Below are positions 2,346 through 38,057 of a stretch of 39,653 nt of DNA, one piece after another. The stretch lies in UHGV virus genome UHGV-0213571; one strand, written 5' to 3'. How positions within the stretch are numbered: position 1 is the stretch's first letter; each line of letters starts with the position of its first letter. The stretch comes from a virus. Made by a program: the position numbers and the translations under genes. The notes under the pieces were generated by a model. That model saw only the letters and a program-made list of their open reading frames with translations, ran no database searches and had not been told where the DNA came from.

Positions 2346-2376
2346 AGGCCTGCTGGTAATCGCAGGCCTTTTTATT
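2346..2376 (+). terminator. Rho-independent terminator between helicase and nin genes (tR2-like position)
   Basis: Hairpin AGGCCTGC-TGGTAATC-GCAGGCCT followed by TTTTATT. Confidence 0.5.
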
Positions 2377-2393
2377 TGGGGGAGAGGGAAGTC

Positions 2394-2834
2394 ATGAAAA
2401 AACTAACCTTTGAAATTCGATCTCCAGCACATCAGCAAAACGCTATTCACGCAGTACAGCAAATCCTTCCAGACCCAACCAAACCAATCGTAGTAACCAT
2501 TCAGGAACGCAACCGCAGCTTAGACCAGAATCGAAAGCTTTGGGCTTGCCTTGGTGACGTCTCTCGTCAGGTTGAATGGCATGGTCGCTGGCTGGATGCA
2601 GAAAGCTGGAAGTGTGTGTTTACCGCAGCATTAAAGCAGCAGGACGTTGTTCCTAACCTTGCCGGGAATGGCTTTGTGGTAATAGGCCAGTCAACCAGCA
2701 GGATGCGTGTAAGCGAATTTGCGGAGCTATTAGAGCTTATACAGGCATTCGGTACAGAGCGTGGCGTTAAGTGGTCAGACGAAGCGCGACTGGCTCTGGA
2801 GTGGAAAGCGAGATGGGGAGATCGGGCTGCATGA
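2394..2834 (+). CDS. ninB: NinB recombination protein (Orf family)
   Basis: Product MKKLTFEIRSPAHQQNAI... recognised as lambda NinB-like; first gene of nin block after the terminator. Confidence 0.8.
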   Translation: MKKLTFEIRSPAHQQNAIHAVQQILPDPTKPIVVTIQERNRSLDQNRKLWACLGDVSRQVEWHGRWLDAESWKCVFTAALKQQDVVPNLAGNGFVVIGQSTSRMRVSEFAELLELIQAFGTERGVKWSDEARLALEWKARWGDRAA

Positions 2835-3358
2835 CTATCAAATCAAATACGCCGGCACACGACAAGGACTGCTGGCAAACGCCGCTCTGGCTTTTTGATG
2901 CGCTGGATATTGAGTTTGGATTCTGGCTGGATTCAGCTGCGAGCGACAAAAACGCTCTGTGCGCTCACTGGCTAACTGAGGCTGACGACGCGCTAAATTC
3001 TGAGTGGATAAGCCACGGTGCAATCTGGAATAACCCACCGTACAGCAATATCAGGCCGTGGGTGGAAAAAGCCGCTGAGCAGTGCATACAACAGCGACAG
3101 ACGGTAGTGATGCTTGTGCCAGAGGATATGTCTGTCGGATGGTTCAGCAAGGCTCTGGAGAGTGTTGACGAAGTTCGCATCATCACTGATGGACGGATTA
3201 ATTTTATCGAACCATCGACAGGGCTGGAGAAGAAGGGAAACAGCAAAGGCTCAATGTTGCTGATTTGGCGACCGTTCATCAGTCCTCGACGGATGTTTAC
3301 TACCGTATCCAAAGCGGCATTGATGGCGATCGGGCTGGGCGTCAGGAGGGCTGCATGA
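2831..3358 (+). CDS. Phage-type DNA N6-adenine methyltransferase (Dam-like)
   Basis: Product contains NPPY catalytic motif ([11 protein letters not shown]) typical of N6-adenine MTases; ATGA overlap with ninB stop. Confidence 0.75.
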
Positions 3359-3531
3359 GGCGACAGCGACGAAGTATCACCGACATAATCTGTGAAAACT
3401 GCAAATACCTTCCAACGAAACGCTCCAGAAATAAACGCAAGCCAATCCCAAAAGAATCTGACGTAAAAACCTTCAACTACACGGCTCACCTGTGGGATAT
3501 CCGGTGGCTAAGACATCGTGCGAGGAAATGA
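3355..3531 (+). CDS. ninE: NinE-like small protein
   Basis: 58-aa product [40 protein letters not shown]... recognised as lambda NinE-like; AGGAGG RBS upstream; ATGA overlap with upstream stop. Confidence 0.55.
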
Positions 3532-3533
3532 CG

Positions 3534-4538
3534 ATGACTGCGTATTACAACGAAATAGATCCGTATGCAGCGCAATGGCTGCGTAACTTAATTGACGCTG
3601 GAGAAATTGCCCCCGGTTATGTAGATGAAAGGAGTATTGAAGATGTCACACCAGGTGATTTGCGAGGATTTACCCAGCACCACTTTTTTGCAGGAATCGG
3701 AGTTTGGAGCTATGCACTTAGAAAAGCAGGATGGCCAGACAACAAGAGTATCTGGACAGGAAGTTGCCCATGCCAACCTTTCAGCTCGGCAGGCAAAGGA
3801 AAAGGGGTTGATGACGAGCGGCACTTATGGCCGGCATTCTTCTGGCTTATTGAAAAATGCAATCCTGGCATCGTTATTGGCGAACAGGTTGCAAGCGCAG
3901 ACGGCCTCGCTTGGCTCGACCTTGTACAAACTGACTTGGAAGGTGCGAACTACACCTCTGCAGGTACCGATATTTGCGCTGCGGGCTTCGGTTCTCCGCA
4001 CATCAGGCAGCGATTGTATTGGGTGGCCTACTCCAACGACAAATATCAACTTTCAGCCAGAGACGCGCAGGGGAATTCAGAACCTATCTGGATGCGTGAG
4101 ACTAGCGGGATGGCAAACTCCTTTAGCGAACGATGCAACAGGTTCAACGCATTGCTACAGCGGAAAAGACAAGAGCGGAACCCCAAGAATCTGCTTGAAA
4201 CTTCCCGGGACGGTGAAGCTATGTACCCATTACCGGTTAACGGCTTCTGGAGAGATGCAGACTGGCTTTACTGTAGAGATGAAAAATATCGTCCAGTTAG
4301 ACCCGGCTCATTCCCGATGGTTAATGGCATTGCCAAAAGCTTGGGACGAGGCAAGTCCACACTGGGAAGAATGGCAAAGCGCAATCAAGATCAGCGAATT
4401 ATTGGATATGGAAACGCAATCAATGCAGAAGTAGCAACGGCATTCGTGAAAGTTTGTATGGAGGTTGTTAATGCTTATCCCATCCCAATCCCTTCAATAC
4501 CAGAAAGAAAGCGTCGAGCGGGCTTTAACGTGCGCTAA
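3534..4538 (+). CDS. DNA cytosine-5 methyltransferase (Dcm-like, orphan)
   Basis: Motif I-like FAGIGVWS and motif IV PCQPFSSAGKGKG (catalytic Cys in PCQ); no adjacent restriction endonuclease gene visible; start could also be 3528. Confidence 0.7.
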   Translation: MTAYYNEIDPYAAQWLRNLIDAGEIAPGYVDERSIEDVTPGDLRGFTQHHFFAGIGVWSYALRKAGWPDNKSIWTGSCPCQPFSSAGKGKGVDDERHLWPAFFWLIEKCNPGIVIGEQVASADGLAWLDLVQTDLEGANYTSAGTDICAAGFGSPHIRQRLYWVAYSNDKYQLSARDAQGNSEPIWMRETSGMANSFSERCNRFNALLQRKRQERNPKNLLETSRDGEAMYPLPVNGFWRDADWLYCRDEKYRPVRPGSFPMVNGIAKSLGRGKSTLGRMAKRNQDQRIIGYGNAINAEVATAFVKVCMEVVNAYPIPIPSIPERKRRAGFNVR

Positions 4539-4647
4539 CTGCGGTCAGAAGCTGCATGTGCTGGAAGTTCACGTGTGTGAGCACTGCTGCGCAGAACTGA
4601 TGAGCGATCCGAATAGCTCAATGTACGAGGAAGAAGACGATGGCTAA
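4471..4647 (+). CDS. ninF: NinF-like small zinc-binding protein
   Basis: Product ...[46 protein letters not shown]... recognised as lambda NinF-like; GGAGG RBS 6 nt upstream of ATG 4471; overlaps 3' end of the C5-MTase ORF in another frame. Confidence 0.6.
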
Positions 4648-5251
4648 ACCAGCGCGAAGACGATGTAAAAACGATGAATGTCGGGAATGGTTTCACCCTG
4701 CATTCGCTAATCAGTGGTGGTGCTCTCCAGAGTGTGGAACCAAGATAGCACTCGAACGACGAAGTAAAGAACGCGAAAAAGCGGAAAAAGCAGCAGAGAA
4801 GAAACGACGACGAGAGGATCAGAAACAGAAAGATAAACTTAAGATTCGAAAACTCGCCTTAAAGCCCCGCAGTTACTGGATTAAACAAGCCCAACAAGCC
4901 GTAAACGCCTTCATCAGAGAAAGAGACCGCGACTTACCATGTATCTCGTGCGGAACGCTCACGTCTGCTCAGTGGGATGCCGGCCATTACCGGACAACTG
5001 CTGCGGCACCTCAACTCCGATTTGATGAACGCAATATTCACAAGCAATGCGTGGTGTGCAACCAGCACAAAAGCGGAAATCTCGTTCCGTATCGCGTCGA
5101 ACTGATTAGCCGCATCGGGCAGGAAGCAGTAGACGAAATCGAATCAAACCATAACCGCCATCGCTGGACTATCGAAGAGTGCAAGGCGATCAAGGCAGAG
5201 TACCAACAGAAACTCAAAGACCTGCGAAATAGCAGAAGTGAGGCCGCATGA
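4640..5251 (+). CDS. ninG: NinG (Rap) recombination-associated endonuclease
   Basis: 203-aa Cys-rich product recognised as lambda NinG/Rap-like. Confidence 0.8.
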
Positions 5252-26367: not shown

Positions 26368-27528
26368 TCAGTACACCTCTTTCCACGAATGCTGGAATAT
26401 TGTCTCGTATGGATAGAATAAATCAGGGTGATTATTAAATCCATATATCAGTCTTGAAATTAAATACAAAACAATAACGCTGTAAATTATAAATATTCCA
26501 GCATTCTTCCTAAACCTATAAAGAACAGATGAAACAAGAAATATCTCTGATGCAGAGTAATACATTGCTAATCTGCTAAAAACAGGATGAACAGAATCAA
26601 GCAACATAAACATTATTGAACTAAACGCAAACAGATTAAACATACCTCTTATGGTACGACCTTCATCATCGTTACGCATTCCATAAGTCGCCCATGCAAA
26701 AACAACAACGAATAATATTCTCTTAGCGTATCCTATTGCTCTTCTTACCTCGCTAGGAATCTCACTAAATGCGTTTAAATCTTGAAGAGCTAGATATCTA
26801 GTTATTTTCATGCTAATAAAAGACGGAAGATAACTTGTCATCAAGCCAAGTATATTGGCAGCGCCAAAAAGCATTGATATTATAGCGGCAATGCAAGTTA
26901 TTAATATTATCCTACTAATACTTGATTTCATTTTGAAAATCAAGTAAGCAGGGATAAACACTAACGCTGTTATATGAAAACCGGATGCAACAATAACGCA
27001 AAAGATAAACTTTGCTTTTGATTGTTCATTTTGTGTTATATATCTAAGTGAAAATATCGTTATCGCTATAGCTATTCCTTGCCTGACTGTAAACATATCC
27101 ATTGAATAAAAGGCCATTGATGCCAATATACATATAAGAGGATACCTTGAAATTTTAAAAAATGTTGAATACTTTAACACAACAACTATTGTTGCTATTA
27201 TAAATAGATAAATTGTGTAAGAGTCATATATATATTTTGATATGAAATTAACAAGAAGAAATAATGTCTCATATCCTTGAGACATGAAAATTTCAAAATT
27301 ATCACTATATGAGAATATATTAAGGTATGGCTCCCAGTCAGTACCTGTTCTCCATCTTATTCCGGCAAATATTATTGTTAATATTCCTATAAATGTAGCG
27401 ATTATTTTTTTATACACAATAGGAGTTTTTAATAAATCGCATGTTGCAACAAAAGAAGCAAATAAGAAGAATAAATAGTATATCATATTTATCACGGTTG
27501 TTATTAAGTTGGGTCCGGATTGTACCAC
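26368..27528 (-). CDS. Polytopic membrane protein, putative O-antigen polymerase (Wzy/EpsG family) — candidate serotype-conversion gene
   Basis: 386 aa, about 10 hydrophobic segments, AT-rich; N-terminal R-x-x-TGTDW-x-x-Y motif (IRWRTGTDWEPYLNIF) resembles EpsG/Wzy signature; sits in the tailspike-int conversion slot; alternative start at 27486. Confidence 0.55.
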   Translation of the reverse strand: MVQSGPNLITTVINMIYYLFFLFASFVATCDLLKTPIVYKKIIATFIGILTIIFAGIRWRTGTDWEPYLNIFSYSDNFEIFMSQGYETLFLLVNFISKYIYDSYTIYLFIIATIVVVLKYSTFFKISRYPLICILASMAFYSMDMFTVRQGIAIAITIFSLRYITQNEQSKAKFIFCVIVASGFHITALVFIPAYLIFKMKSSISRIILITCIAAIISMLFGAANILGLMTSYLPSFISMKITRYLALQDLNAFSEIPSEVRRAIGYAKRILFVVVFAWATYGMRNDDEGRTIRGMFNLFAFSSIMFMLLDSVHPVFSRLAMYYSASEIFLVSSVLYRFRKNAGIFIIYSVIVLYLISRLIYGFNNHPDLFYPYETIFQHSWKEVY

Positions 27529-33273: not shown

Positions 33274-33434
33274 TTTTTTCCACTCCGCCACATCGCATTC
33301 AGATATTTGTTTTGATTCACTGATGGAAAAGAATTTCTCTTAAGCAATTCCTCTCTCGATGGCATTGGCTTTACGCGTTGGCGAATAATCATTTCTGCCG
33401 GAAGAATGCCGGGATTGTATGCAAGTCCTCTCAT
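33270..33434 (-). CDS. Small hypothetical protein (about 53 aa), translationally coupled on both sides
   Basis: ATG at 33434 overlaps stop of upstream gene (ATGA); its stop overlaps ATG of downstream gene; below ORF-track size cutoff. Confidence 0.3.
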
Positions 33435-33712
33435 GATTTACTCTCCATGAACTGGTCAATAGCCATGCTAAGTGACATACCTAAAGTTTCGATATGCTGC
33501 TGAATATCCTGTAGCGTCTGCGCCTGAGATAACAGGATTTCACGGTTGCATAACTCTTTAACCAGATGCTCAAACTTGCTGTAATAACCGATACGACTTA
33601 GTGTTTCTTTCCCTGCATTCTCACCTTCTTTGATAATTCCTCTTTCACTAAGAATCAGGTCGTGTTTGGTTCCGGTAATAACGTATTTTCCGAGGTCGAT
33701 GTTTAGCTTCAT
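33431..33712 (-). CDS. Hypothetical protein
   Basis: 93-aa ORF in operon context. Confidence 0.45.
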
Positions 33713-33728
33713 TGTTAATTATTCCATG

Positions 33729-34043
33729 TTAATTTATTCGTATGCCTGCTCTTTCTTCATCGAGTTTTTTTAGCTTGTATCGCATAGCTCTTACTGAATA
33801 AATTGAGCGGCAGGTTGCAATTGCTATTTCTTCTACGGAGAACTTACCGAAAAGTGATACTTCTGCTCTTGTCCAGCGTCTTCCACGAAGTCGGCTAACA
33901 ATGTCAGCGCCAATCCTTGTTGCTTTCGCCATTACTGCTTTTTCAGTCCTTTCCAGTTTTTCAGCAATAACTTCAACTGGCATTGTCGCCGATACTTCGC
34001 GCAAGAAATCGACTTCCCATTTCTCCCATGGAGTCTTTTTCAT
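33729..34043 (-). CDS. Hypothetical basic protein, possible DNA-binding
   Basis: 104 aa, Arg/Lys-rich, helical. Confidence 0.45.
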   Translation of the reverse strand: MKKTPWEKWEVDFLREVSATMPVEVIAEKLERTEKAVMAKATRIGADIVSRLRGRRWTRAEVSLFGKFSVEEIAIATCRSIYSVRAMRYKLKKLDEERAGIRIN

Positions 34044-34054
34044 AGGCGATACCG

Positions 34055-34543
34055 TTATTTGATAAGAAGTGAAGGTTTCCCAACTTTGAGTTGAGCGCCG
34101 GGGATATTTATTCCTGCTTTTAGTTGGTGTTTGATTGCCAGTTTGTCGGCTTTAATTGTCGTTTCAAACTCAACGTATTCAGGAGGAAGGGCGCTTGAGT
34201 CGATGATTTCTACAGTTTCTGACGGTTTGCGGATTGTTACCTGGTGAATACCTGCTCGAATCTTTTTCTTGCCAACCATTTCAAGCGATGACGCTATATA
34301 CGCCATAATGCTGTCAATCTTATTTTGAATTACTGCGGCTCGCTCATTCAGTGACTTTGCCTCTTCCTTGAGGCGTTCGGCATAACCAGATTCATTTTTA
34401 ATGACGGAAAGAAGTTGCTCTATTTTATCGGTAAATTCTCCTTCCATGCCTTCTATTGTGTCAGCAATCATCTCTGGTTCTAAATCTGAATCCATCAATT
34501 TTGCGTACTCATTGGCAATTTCATACAGTTTGCTCACTGGCAA
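34055..34543 (-). CDS. Putative recombination-associated protein (Gp157-like)
   Basis: 162 aa, immediately downstream of and overlapping recT; family assignment from memory only. Confidence 0.4.
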   Translation of the reverse strand: MPVSKLYEIANEYAKLMDSDLEPEMIADTIEGMEGEFTDKIEQLLSVIKNESGYAERLKEEAKSLNERAAVIQNKIDSIMAYIASSLEMVGKKKIRAGIHQVTIRKPSETVEIIDSSALPPEYVEFETTIKADKLAIKHQLKAGINIPGAQLKVGKPSLLIK

Positions 34544-35432
34544 CCTCCAGTTTCGCTTTGCATTCTGCGTAAATGGCTTGTACGTTCTGCTGCAATTTCA
34601 TTCCAGATGTCAGGCGATATGCTTCTGCAAAATATCGCTTCAAATCATCCATGTTTTCTGCCTGAGCCATTTCATCGCAAAGAAGTTGTGCTTTATCCAT
34701 TATTTCCTGCTGGCGTTTCCGTTCATCTTCGCGGATATCTTCCTCTGATTTGTGCGGCATAACTGGTTCAGTCCACACACCTTCTTCTTCGTTTAGTACG
34801 TGAATAGCACTATCAAGACGTGATGCCTTAGGCCAATACTTGCTTGCACGCTTTACGACCGTCTTTCGCGCCATCTCATTCCAGTGATTTACCCATGGTC
34901 CTTTATCGCTGAATGCTGCCTTGCTTGTTTTCCTTACAGCCTCAATTTCAGCCAGACTCATCTCTTCCGTTAGATAATCACCTGCTGGCGTCTTAACTGT
35001 GCAGTAAACGCCAACGATATCACCACGATCACCGAAGGCGTTGTATTTATGGGTTGGTGCTTTATCAAGCCCGTTTGACTCATAGGTATCGTTAGCATGA
35101 ACAAGTTTTGCCTGACCCCATGAGATAACACCAGACTCCATTGCAATATGGAGCAATCCCATATAGCTGATATCAAGGCAAACCATGCCGTCGCGCGGAA
35201 CCAGATAAGCCAGTTTGCTGGCCGGGTTTAAGGTGATGCCGATCGCCGCAACATTGATGATGGCGTTCTGTGCGCTGGTTGGATTTGCCAGTGCCGTTTT
35301 AGCCAGGTAATCGTTTTTCTGGAAATACTGAATTGCAAACTGGCTTTCCTTAGCCCATGTCACCGTCTGTTCAGTCAATGCTCCGCAGAATAACTGCTCT
35401 TGCTGTTTAACGAATTCAACGATATTGCTCAT
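34521..35432 (-). CDS. recT: RecT-family single-strand annealing recombinase
   Basis: Motif GPWVNHWNEMARKTVVKRASKYWP resembles Rac RecT GPWVTHWEEMAKKTAIRRLFKYLP. Confidence 0.8.
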   Translation of the reverse strand: MSNIVEFVKQQEQLFCGALTEQTVTWAKESQFAIQYFQKNDYLAKTALANPTSAQNAIINVAAIGITLNPASKLAYLVPRDGMVCLDISYMGLLHIAMESGVISWGQAKLVHANDTYESNGLDKAPTHKYNAFGDRGDIVGVYCTVKTPAGDYLTEEMSLAEIEAVRKTSKAAFSDKGPWVNHWNEMARKTVVKRASKYWPKASRLDSAIHVLNEEEGVWTEPVMPHKSEEDIREDERKRQQEIMDKAQLLCDEMAQAENMDDLKRYFAEAYRLTSGMKLQQNVQAIYAECKAKLEVASEQTV

Positions 35433-35740
35433 GCAGCTTCTCCATAAATATGTCTGCGTTTGAATATTGCGAAGGCATATTCAGCCTTAACTCTTTCGGT
35501 TATTGCATCCCAGAACCATTCAGCGGCTTTTTCCTGATAGTTACAGTCATCATCTTCCAGCCAGTCGATAGCGTCCTTAGTGTGTTCATCTGGTTTATAT
35601 GAGCGAAGCATTTCGCTTATTGGGTCGCAACGTTTGCAGAGGCGATCAACTTCACTGTTGATTCGTTCGTAATCTTCATCAGTAAAACTTGCGATGATTT
35701 GCGATATTTCACGCTTATCATTCAGAGTCAGAATCATCAT
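35429..35740 (-). CDS. Hypothetical acidic protein upstream of recT
   Basis: 103 aa, acidic; occupies the slot where an exonuclease or anti-RecBCD gene is usually found. Confidence 0.45.
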   Translation of the reverse strand: MMILTLNDKREISQIIASFTDEDYERINSEVDRLCKRCDPISEMLRSYKPDEHTKDAIDWLEDDDCNYQEKAAEWFWDAITERVKAEYAFAIFKRRHIYGEAA

Positions 35741-35827
35741 CTTTCTCCTGTTCTTTGTGCTGATTGAGCATTTTGTTCATCTGACGAATGAATTCTTCGT
35801 CTGACCAGTTATCTGTAAAACTCATGG

Positions 35828-35992
35828 GCGGCCTTGTTGTTTCAAAATATCCCAAAGCTTTTCGAGCAAGCTTTTCATTCTTGGTTGTTTAAAGTCTGCT
35901 CCGGTTAAAATATTTTTTCGTGAATGCTGTACCGATAAAATCGGGTTGAAAGGGCGAACCGATGCCGCCCCTGCAATAGCGAACTGTTGCAT
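35828..35992 (-). CDS. cIII: cIII-like protein (FtsH/HflB inhibitor)
   Basis: 54-aa product MQQFAIAGAASV...LLEKLWDILKQQGRP resembles lambda CIII (MQYAIAG...LIDILNQPG); GGAGCA RBS; below ORF-track cutoff. Confidence 0.5.
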
Positions 35993-36067: not shown

Positions 36068-36379
36068 TTAGGCGGCTGATGTTTCTTCTTTCAGGCTTTC
36101 GAGATATTTACGTGGGTCGTCGTAACATTGGCATTCGCTGTACCAATCCACCCAGCGATCAGTAAGCCCCATCTCTGATAAATCTTCATCGGTAAGGCTC
36201 TCATCCCACATTTCAAGGCCGTTAGCATTGCAGTAATCAGGCTTGATGTTGTTGTCATACTGAAAGGCGTCATAATCAGCCAGTGCGTCCATCAGGCGAA
36301 CACCCTCTTCAACACTTGCCACTTCTACAATGAACGGCTTCATAGGTACTTGCGGGATATGCCAGACACGTAATTTCAT
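36068..36379 (-). CDS. Hypothetical acidic small protein (early-left operon)
   Basis: 103 aa, strongly acidic, RBS CCTCC complement upstream; no recognised domain. Confidence 0.5.
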   Translation of the reverse strand: MKLRVWHIPQVPMKPFIVEVASVEEGVRLMDALADYDAFQYDNNIKPDYCNANGLEMWDESLTDEDLSEMGLTDRWVDWYSECQCYDDPRKYLESLKEETSAA

Positions 36380-37000: not shown

Positions 37001-37300
37001 TCAAATAAGTGGTTTGCTGCCTAATTTCATTTTCTGGCGACCAACACAAGTCACACCCATTTCACTGCGTGGCTTGCGGTAGTAAATACGGTTCTGTTTA
37101 CACTCGACTTCTTCTGCCTTCTTGCAGCGAAGGCTTCCGAGTGACGCTGCTTTGTCTGCTCTGACGCAACCAGAGAGCTTTAGCGCAATCTTTCGCGCCA
37201 GTCTCTGTTCTTTCATTGCCTGTTCACGTTGAGCCTGTCTTCGTGCTCTGCGGCGATTTCTGGCGTTATCGTCAGCCAGATATGTAATGACTACTGTCAT
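37001..37300 (-). CDS. N: Antitermination protein N (arginine-rich motif type)
   Basis: N-terminal arginine-rich motif (NARNRRRARRQAQREQ) directly downstream of nutL boxA/boxB; first gene of pL operon. Confidence 0.65.
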   Translation of the reverse strand: MTVVITYLADDNARNRRRARRQAQREQAMKEQRLARKIALKLSGCVRADKAASLGSLRCKKAEEVECKQNRIYYRKPRSEMGVTCVGRQKMKLGSKPLI

Positions 37301-37667: not shown

Positions 37668-38057
37668 TTAGTCAGCGAAGGTTAAGACGAGAATTACCTT
37701 AATGATGTCTGCTACAACAGACACGGCCATAGATAAACCAAAGACGATCCAAGCCATAGAGATGTCTTCACTACCATCGTATAGAGTTCCGTAATCACTG
37801 GTGTAAGGCGTAAATGTCGCGCCTTGATACAATAGGTATAAGCTTGAACCATAGAGGATAAATGCAGATATCCCTTGTATTGCTATGATCACTAGAATCA
37901 TGAAACGAGCTGATCTATGCGCCCAAGCCTGGCTTATTTTTTCTGATAGAGATTTCGCAATAAAAGCATGCGCTAAGCCGTAAATTGTCGAGATTGCCAA
38001 CATCCCAAAAAAGCTTGCTATAGCGGTTCCAACCATAATCGCCCCTTGCGTGATCAA
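37668..38057 (-). CDS. Small polytopic membrane protein co-transcribed with cI (rex-position); candidate superinfection-exclusion / abortive-infection factor
   Basis: 129 aa with about 4 hydrophobic segments; ATGA start-stop overlap with cI. Confidence 0.55.
   Translation of the reverse strand: MITQGAIMVGTAIASFFGMLAISTIYGLAHAFIAKSLSEKISQAWAHRSARFMILVIIAIQGISAFILYGSSLYLLYQGATFTPYTSDYGTLYDGSEDISMAWIVFGLSMAVSVVADIIKVILVLTFAD

Follow-up and report, generated by a model that had tools for sequence, protein, structure and literature searches.

The window analysed here is the whole 39,653-nucleotide stretch of the virus genome UHGV-0213571, which is a mosaic P22/HK620-like (Lederbergvirus-type) temperate phage of Escherichia coli. 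The region around its recT gene, at positions 34055-35740 and the gene immediately downstream, is probably an HK140-type recombination (Rec) module, in which a RecT-family annealing protein is paired with a Sipho_Gp157 family protein, with neither a nuclease nor a single-stranded DNA-binding protein (SSB) of its own. This exact module has already been described and is common, and in lambdoid phages recT commonly occurs with no exonuclease of its own. The original prediction was correct that the exonuclease is missing, but it selected the wrong gene as the Gam-like factor, choosing the small acidic protein upstream of RecT rather than Gp157. The three open reading frames (ORFs) on which it was based were confirmed at their positions, and all lie on the minus strand. 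With a fourth gene, they form the following block, in order of transcription:

35429-35740, minus strand: a103, an acidic, all-helical protein of 103 amino acids (aa), the first gene of the block (phrog_3486, 1.7e-59).
34521-35432, minus strand: RecT-family single-strand annealing protein, 303 aa (Pfam RecT, 3.7e-32; phrog_148, 2.9e-92; TIGR00616).
34055-34537, minus strand: 160-aa member of the Sipho_Gp157 family, starting at a GTG (Pfam, 9e-37; phrog_253, 7e-54).
33729-34043, minus strand: b104, a basic tandem helix-turn-helix protein of 104 aa, the last gene of the block (phrog_11492/phrog_323, 'D5-like regulator').

Judged by its sequence, the product of 34521-35432 is a solid member of the RecT family, exceeding the curated cutoffs of both PF03837 (111.9 bits, cutoff 24) and TIGR00616 (82.4 bits, cutoff 52.65). 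It nevertheless falls below equivalog level for the Rac RecT model NF007351, with 101.8 bits where the cutoff is 296, and hence is not an orthologue of Rac RecT. The closest solved structure by sequence is that of Listeria RecT (7UB2, E=0.0044).

A partner nuclease was sought with Pfam and PHROG profiles in the ORFs of the early-left (PL) operon, in ORFs of at least 88 aa from the replication and nin regions, and in the integrase-side ORFs of at least 70 aa; the late region was assessed for nucleases solely through the annotations of matching phages. No lambda-Exo/YqaJ, RecE/DUF3799, DnaQ or HNH nuclease was detected among the scanned early-region ORFs. This bears out the claim that recT has no RecE or lambda-Exo-type exonuclease within its operon, and extends it to the other early ORFs that were scanned. 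The profiles equally found no nuclease domain in the ORFs neighbouring recT; the detection of such a domain had been named beforehand as the observation that would overturn the claim. This negative result is meaningful, because the same searches readily detected DUF3799 and YqaJ proteins in the comparison loci. Hence the adjacent 5'-3' exonuclease that characterises the two-component recombinases RecET and lambda Red is absent from the scanned ORFs. The only DNA-cutting functions seen were NinG/Rap (4640-5251) and the terminase, and these, like NinB/Orf, are generic lambdoid functions rather than partners of RecT.

Zheng, Casjens, Davidson, Amundsen and Smith (Genome Res 2025, PMC12315714) have examined 325 lambdoid phages for their Rec modules, and the published scheme sorts module components into four functions: SSB, nuclease, annealing protein and anti-RecBCD. 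There, a nuclease is absent from 84 of the 246 lambdoid Rec modules, and the functional type consisting only of an anti-RecBCD and an annealing protein, with P22 as its prototype, comprises 46 phages. Annealing proteins of sequence type 4 work in HK140 with a 'MuGam' anti-RecBCD, and with neither a phage SSB nor a phage nuclease (PMC12315714). The window contains the same arrangement, with contiguous RecT-type and MuGam-type genes in the early-left operon, and no nuclease or SSB gene. Nearly all headful packagers in the survey carry a Rec module, and phages encoding an anti-RecBCD are mostly without Chi (PMC12315714). The Chi site GCTGGTGG does not occur on either strand of the 39.6 kb window. 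However, this zero count says little, because approximately one site would be expected by chance: it is consistent with the pattern for phages with an anti-RecBCD, and is not evidence for it.

The likeness to HK140 extends beyond these two genes. The modules of HK140, mEpX1, Gally and Kapi1 have the same gene order of a103, RecT, Gp157 and b104, and similarly lack a nuclease and an SSB, with the block being approximately 98% identical at the nucleotide level in these four phages, as well as in Louie and vB_EcoP-611R6. When a 3 kb query was used, 79-89% of it was covered at 98% identity in HK140, mEpX1, Gally and vB_EcoP-611R6. The modules differ only in their flanks, which involve gp17, a 156-aa ORF and Ea22-like genes. 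IMG/VR yielded 401 loci with a relative of the Gp157 gene and 203 with a relative of the a103 gene, and synteny was counted in the best 80 of each. Among the best 80 of the 401 Gp157 loci, all contained the RecT-Gp157 pair, 77 contained a103 and 79 contained b104, with variable outer flanks; the block proteins were 97-100% identical across all 80 of these loci. The full four-gene block was likewise present in 79 of the best 80 of the 203 a103 loci. More distantly, the block recurs in Serratia and Enterobacter prophages at 59-70% identity in Gp157, with the RecT-Gp157 order retained at 63-69%. Hence the recurrence of the block in the IMG/VR loci and in these prophages indicates that these ORFs are real genes, rather than chance reading frames.

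The genes of the block are tightly packed. The stop codon of a103 and the start codon of recT share a four-nucleotide ATGA, the 3' end of recT overlaps the start of the Gp157 gene by 17 nucleotides, and only 11 nucleotides separate the Gp157 and b104 genes; these overlaps suggest translational coupling. The GTG at 34537 is a more likely start for the Gp157 gene than position 34543, because the homologous proteins are 160 aa long. Such features are difficult to reconcile with the module being a decayed remnant, which has lost its exonuclease and left recT nonfunctional for double-strand recombination. Firstly, the ORFs are intact, and their overlaps conserved. Secondly, the block is maintained in 80 of 80 close loci (the best 80 of 401) despite their variable flanks. 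Thirdly, the preservation of the same gene order across genera, at 63-69% Gp157 identity, implies purifying selection. Fourthly, complete genomes have been deposited for phages that carry the block, HK140, mEpX1, Kapi1 and Gally among them. Decay is therefore a most improbable explanation of the missing exonuclease.

The second component of the module, Gp157, had been treated as a bystander. This view did not hold, as its family, phrog_253, is labelled 'Mu Gam-like end protection' in PHROGs, and the HK140 protein is classed as a MuGam-type member of the anti-RecBCD group by Zheng et al. (PMC12315714). The assignment of the product of 34055-34537 to the Sipho_Gp157 family is solid from its profile match: it scores 127 bits against PF05565 (cutoff 28.6), with residues 3-160 aligning to model positions 1-162, and all 20 of the family members tested match the same model.

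Mu Gam is a Ku-like protein that binds double-strand ends. Several features link it to Gp157. The two proteins are of similar length (174 aa for Mu Gam, 160 aa for Gp157), and each is encoded next to a gene for a phrog_323-type helix-turn-helix protein. There is a sub-threshold Pfam match over most of both proteins, with the Phage_Mu_Gam model (PF07352) aligning over Gp157 residues 38-159 and positions 28-147 of the model's 149. One local alignment, compared by reading, contains coinciding residues, invariant in each family, at R103/R105, P105/P107, D113/D115 and A134-I135/A140-I141, as well as at G147/G153, K151/K157 and G153/G159 (Gp157/Mu Gam), a correspondence that is suggestive.

Other observations make the connection of Gp157 with Mu Gam a weak one. 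The PF07352 match (E=0.007) scores 16.8 bits where the cutoff is 28.3, and only six of the 20 Gp157 family members tested match this model at E≤0.1, which is approximately the rate for spurious coiled-coil families. Mu Gam belongs to a different Pfam family, and to phrog_491 rather than phrog_253. Comparisons of the two families with hhalign and hidden Markov models (HMMs) did not exceed a shuffled control, using shallow alignments with an effective number of sequences (Neff) of about 2, and homology is not demonstrable with profiles of this depth. Nor did a search with the Mu Gam protein widen its alignment, as the 120 matches listed were 72-100% identical to Mu Gam itself. No functional or biochemical study of any Gp157-family protein was found in the literature searched, and we infer the host source of single-stranded DNA for RecT entirely. 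Overall, the evidence is evenly poised as to whether Gp157 is an end-protection or anti-RecBCD protein that would bind double-strand ends in the manner of Mu Gam, and we regard it as a candidate for this role.

An alternative function for Gp157 would be to supply RecT with single-stranded DNA, either as a cryptic nuclease or as a loader of a host nuclease or helicase, in which case the module would not truly lack a nuclease. The AlphaFold2 (AF2) model of Gp157, with a predicted local distance difference test (pLDDT) score of 79.5, consists of a 68-residue helix (residues 21-88) followed by a beta-rich C-terminal domain. The predicted order of elements in this domain, beta-beta-beta-alpha-beta-beta after the long helix, would be compatible with a nuclease, and with Foldseek the model weakly resembled phage nucleases of the PD-(D/E)XK and COG5377 groups (E=0.015-1.2, TM scores of 0.2-0.47). 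Residues D113, E123 and K129 are also invariant in the family. However, the structural matches are not significant, the invariant residues are not in a D...(D/E)XK arrangement, with part of the segment modelled at a pLDDT below 50, and no nuclease family in Pfam, PHROGs or NCBIfam matches Gp157. Gene neighbourhoods bear on this idea in both directions. In Firmicutes phages, Mu-gam-like and Gp157/orf157-like genes are neighbours of erf and sak4 (PMC8093625), whereas in the locus L093 a Gp157 gene sits beside a RecE-like exonuclease, arguing against redundancy with a nuclease. It is therefore very unlikely that Gp157 serves RecT in this way, and end protection is the function preferred here.

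The protein to which the original prediction had assigned the Gam-like role was instead a103, proposed as an Abc or Gam-like modulator that redirects host RecBCD. It is a member of a small family, phrog_3486, for which a word-indexed search recovered 27 clusters, and an exhaustive HMM search against representatives clustered at 50% identity recovered 54 matches (E≤0.001). Members are mostly about 100 aa long, and mostly end in E-(A/V)-A. The window protein has an isoelectric point (pI) of 4.65 and a net charge of about -9, with several neighbouring gene products being more acidic, and its AF2 model (pLDDT 75) contains five helices. It has no match in Pfam, NCBIfam or PADLOC and no relative among the sequences in the PDB; PADLOC also returned nothing relevant for the rest of the block or the genes around it. 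Relatives of a103 precede recombination genes of several kinds. The Salmonella phage SEN22 encodes a copy that is 96% identical, yet is followed by a DUF3799 (RecE-like) nuclease gene rather than by recT. The genes that follow the a103 relative are similarly diverse when further loci are added, the distant ones of which were few and came from single-protein scans:

SEN22: DUF3799 nuclease, phrog_11517 protein, b104 homologue (89% identical).
L096: as in SEN22.
L094: ERF, YqaJ, phrog_11492/323 helix-turn-helix protein.
L093: RecE-like exonuclease, Gp157.
Serratia and Enterobacter prophages: RecT, Gp157.

The a103-family gene invariably comes first in the module. In most of these loci, the coordinates place the stop codon of the a103-family gene so that it overlaps or abuts the next start codon, mostly through a shared ATGA or GTGA. 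As relatives of a103 head modules both with and without a nuclease, the protein is not a compensation or substitute for the missing exonuclease.

The possibility that a103 is nevertheless an inhibitor or redirector of RecBCD resembling Gam, GamL or Abc, allowing RecT to work without a phage exonuclease, has some circumstantial attraction. The protein is small, helical and acidic, and the overlap of its gene with recT suggests that they are translationally coupled. A genuine GamL (NF033500, 2.9e-42) occupies the slot immediately upstream of RecT-Gp157 in the prophage L091, and the a103 relatives in SEN22, L094 and L096 head modules without a recognised anti-RecBCD gene, as far as Table 1 of the survey (PMC12315714) is concerned. 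Yet a103 has no detectable similarity to P22-type Abc2 (BLASTP, E=3.2), nor to GamL, to which neither the NCBIfam model nor a profile comparison (probability 0.3%) related it. There was also no similarity to the ORF in the arf position, and neither sequence nor fold likeness to Gam, GamL, Abc1 or Abc2. Furthermore, the family precedes DUF3799, ERF with YqaJ, and a RecE-like exonuclease, as well as RecT. Consequently, the proposal that the acidic protein is an Abc/Gam-like modulator is not supported, and we consider it unlikely. Separately, the database proteins P0129, P0142, P0144 and P0145 are chimeras, in which the N- or C-terminal half of a103 is joined to unrelated sequence; among the fused sequences are DUF551, the 35-aa ORF that lies upstream of a103, and a PF02447-annotated protein. 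Such chimeras suggest that mosaic recombination junctions occur within the a103 gene.

At the other end of the block, b104 is basic (pI 10.0), and a helix-turn-helix-like W-x-x-x-E/D motif occurs in it twice. Its PHROG matches, to phrog_11492 and phrog_323, are at 2e-22 and 9e-20, and it is weakly similar to Mu gp9 (E=7e-5). In the Gally record (L001, 3052-3366), the corresponding gene is annotated as 'Anti-RecBCD protein 1', with a note of similarity to P22 Abc1. This identification was rejected, since BLASTP against P22-type Abc1 produced no alignment, and the annotation therefore looks positional and misleading. In phage Mu itself, gp9 (phrog_323, 'D5-like regulator') is encoded immediately upstream of gam (locus L006, 1483-2326), mirroring the adjacency of Gp157 and b104 in the window with the order reversed. 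This hints that an end-binding protein and a helix-turn-helix protein form a conserved pairing.

Proteins of the phrog_323/11492 type also close the modules of SEN22, L094, L096 and the Serratia locus L087. A phrog_3486 gene at the head and a phrog_323/11492 gene at the close are thus a feature of Rec modules that differ in composition (the window, L005, L087, L093, L094 and L096), with the bracketed genes being RecT and Gp157, DUF3799 and the phrog_11517 protein, ERF and YqaJ, or a RecE-like exonuclease and Gp157. This bracketing is a minor, mildly new point. Both a103 and b104 are absent from the published four-function scheme, in which RecT and MuGam are counted for the HK140 module, and the two bracket genes are not discussed (PMC12315714). 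Tentatively, they might be unrecognised accessory components of the Rec modules of enterobacterial phages, although we hold this to be doubtful.

Under the preferred interpretation, transcription from PL, antiterminated by N, would express all four genes of the block, with their overlaps suggesting translational coupling. Gp157 may, on balanced evidence, shield double-strand ends from RecBCD. By analogy with other nuclease-less modules, such as that of P22, single-stranded DNA would arise from host helicase and 5'-3' nuclease activities, or from gaps at replication forks, rather than from a dedicated phage exonuclease. RecT would then anneal complementary single strands, and thereby could circularise the injected, terminally redundant headful genome, and feed recombination-dependent formation of concatemers.

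This arrangement resembles that of P22 (arf, erf, abc1, abc2) in its position in the operon, in the type of virion and packaging, and in having small accessory genes around the recombinase. The functional type is also alike, in that an annealing protein and an anti-RecBCD candidate occur without an exonuclease from the phage. However, the annealing protein is Erf in P22 and RecT in the window, and the binding target is RecC for P22 Abc2 but, as proposed, DNA ends for Gp157. Neither a103 nor b104 is a homologue of P22 Abc2, Abc1 or the arf-position ORF. With Rac RecET and lambda Red (Exo/Bet/Gam), the window shares a RecT-family (Rad52-like) annealing protein, a PL or early-left operon and recombination-dependent growth, but those systems have their own 5'-3' exonuclease, RecE or Exo, to load the annealing protein, and none was detected in the scanned ORFs of the window. 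In the phi80 and HK639-type modules, GamL is combined with a RecT of the same sequence type as that of the window. The order in L091 is GamL, RecT and Gp157; the window has a103 in the slot of GamL, with the two being not detectably related.

The wider genome is consistent with this setting. The window carries P22-like genes for the terminase, portal, coat and DNA transfer, and the window-wide matches to the portal, terminase and DNA-transfer genes support the phage being a headful-packaging podovirus. An integrase gene and a DnaB-type helicase are encoded, the immunity region lies at 38-39.5 kb, and the nin region contains NinB, Dam, NinE, a C5-methylase, NinG, a NinI-type phosphatase and Q. 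The Rec block is on the minus strand in the early-left operon, which runs, in the direction of transcription, from N through the 156-aa ORF, gp17, cIII and a 35-aa ORF to the four-gene block. On the 3' side of the block is a DUF5405 gene (33431-33712), followed by Ea22-like genes. The features flanking the block are:

37001-37300, minus strand: N-like antiterminator, heading the PL operon (phrog_271, 3e-36; arginine-rich N-terminus in the translation).
36068-36379, minus strand: gp17 superinfection exclusion.
35822-35992, minus strand: cIII-like protein, 56 aa (phrog_550, 1e-22).
35718-35825, minus strand: small acidic ORF of 35 aa, between cIII and a103 (phrog_17766, 1e-15; phrog_2123, 4e-10).
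33431-33712, minus strand: DUF5405 protein, 93 aa, a variable flank gene (Pfam DUF5405, 1.5e-05).

The 35-aa ORF (35718-35825) carries the automatic label 'recombinase', and has tblastn matches in 84 phage records, usually by kil or cIII; in lambdoid phages it is widespread in the interval from kil/cIII to the Rec module. The DUF5405 protein is 65% identical to SPN9CC_0009, and its gene is found in approximately half of the related loci, as well as downstream of abc2 in P22-like phages.

Elsewhere in the window, the nin region encodes the recombination mediator NinB/Orf (2376-2834, plus strand) and the branched-DNA endonuclease NinG/Rap (4640-5251, plus strand), hence the phage has recombination accessories beyond the Rec module of the PL operon. 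The same region contains two DNA methyltransferase genes (2771-3358 and 3492-4538, both plus strand), one for a Dam-type N6-adenine enzyme and one for a C5-cytosine enzyme, which probably serve in anti-restriction. Between the tailspike and integrase genes, a moron of low guanine-cytosine (GC) content encodes an EpsG-family membrane protein of 386 aa (26368-27528, minus strand; Pfam, 1.2e-45), within a region at approximately 25-28 kb that is 35% GC. This is likely to be a serotype-conversion gene of the O-antigen or exopolysaccharide polymerase type. Directly downstream of cI, in the position occupied by rexAB in lambda, is a gene for a predicted membrane protein of 129 aa (37668-38057, minus strand), which matches phrog_6534 and has no Pfam or PADLOC match; it may be an exclusion gene expressed by the prophage.

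The finding of a recT gene without an exonuclease in itself adds little, as this is common in lambdoid phages and the module has already been surveyed. Rather, the compact RecT-Gp157 pair, which naturally comes without a nuclease, is a candidate for use in E. coli recombineering and would be of modest practical value. It also provides a convenient system for determining whether Gp157-family proteins protect DNA ends from RecBCD, a question on which no report was found in the literature searched. The bracket genes a103 and b104 may themselves merit attention, as they accompany recombination modules of differing composition. If functional, b104 could act with the end-binding protein as a DNA-binding partner, or regulate it, and a103 could be either a new modulator of host nucleases or host defences, or a cofactor common to unrelated phage recombinases.

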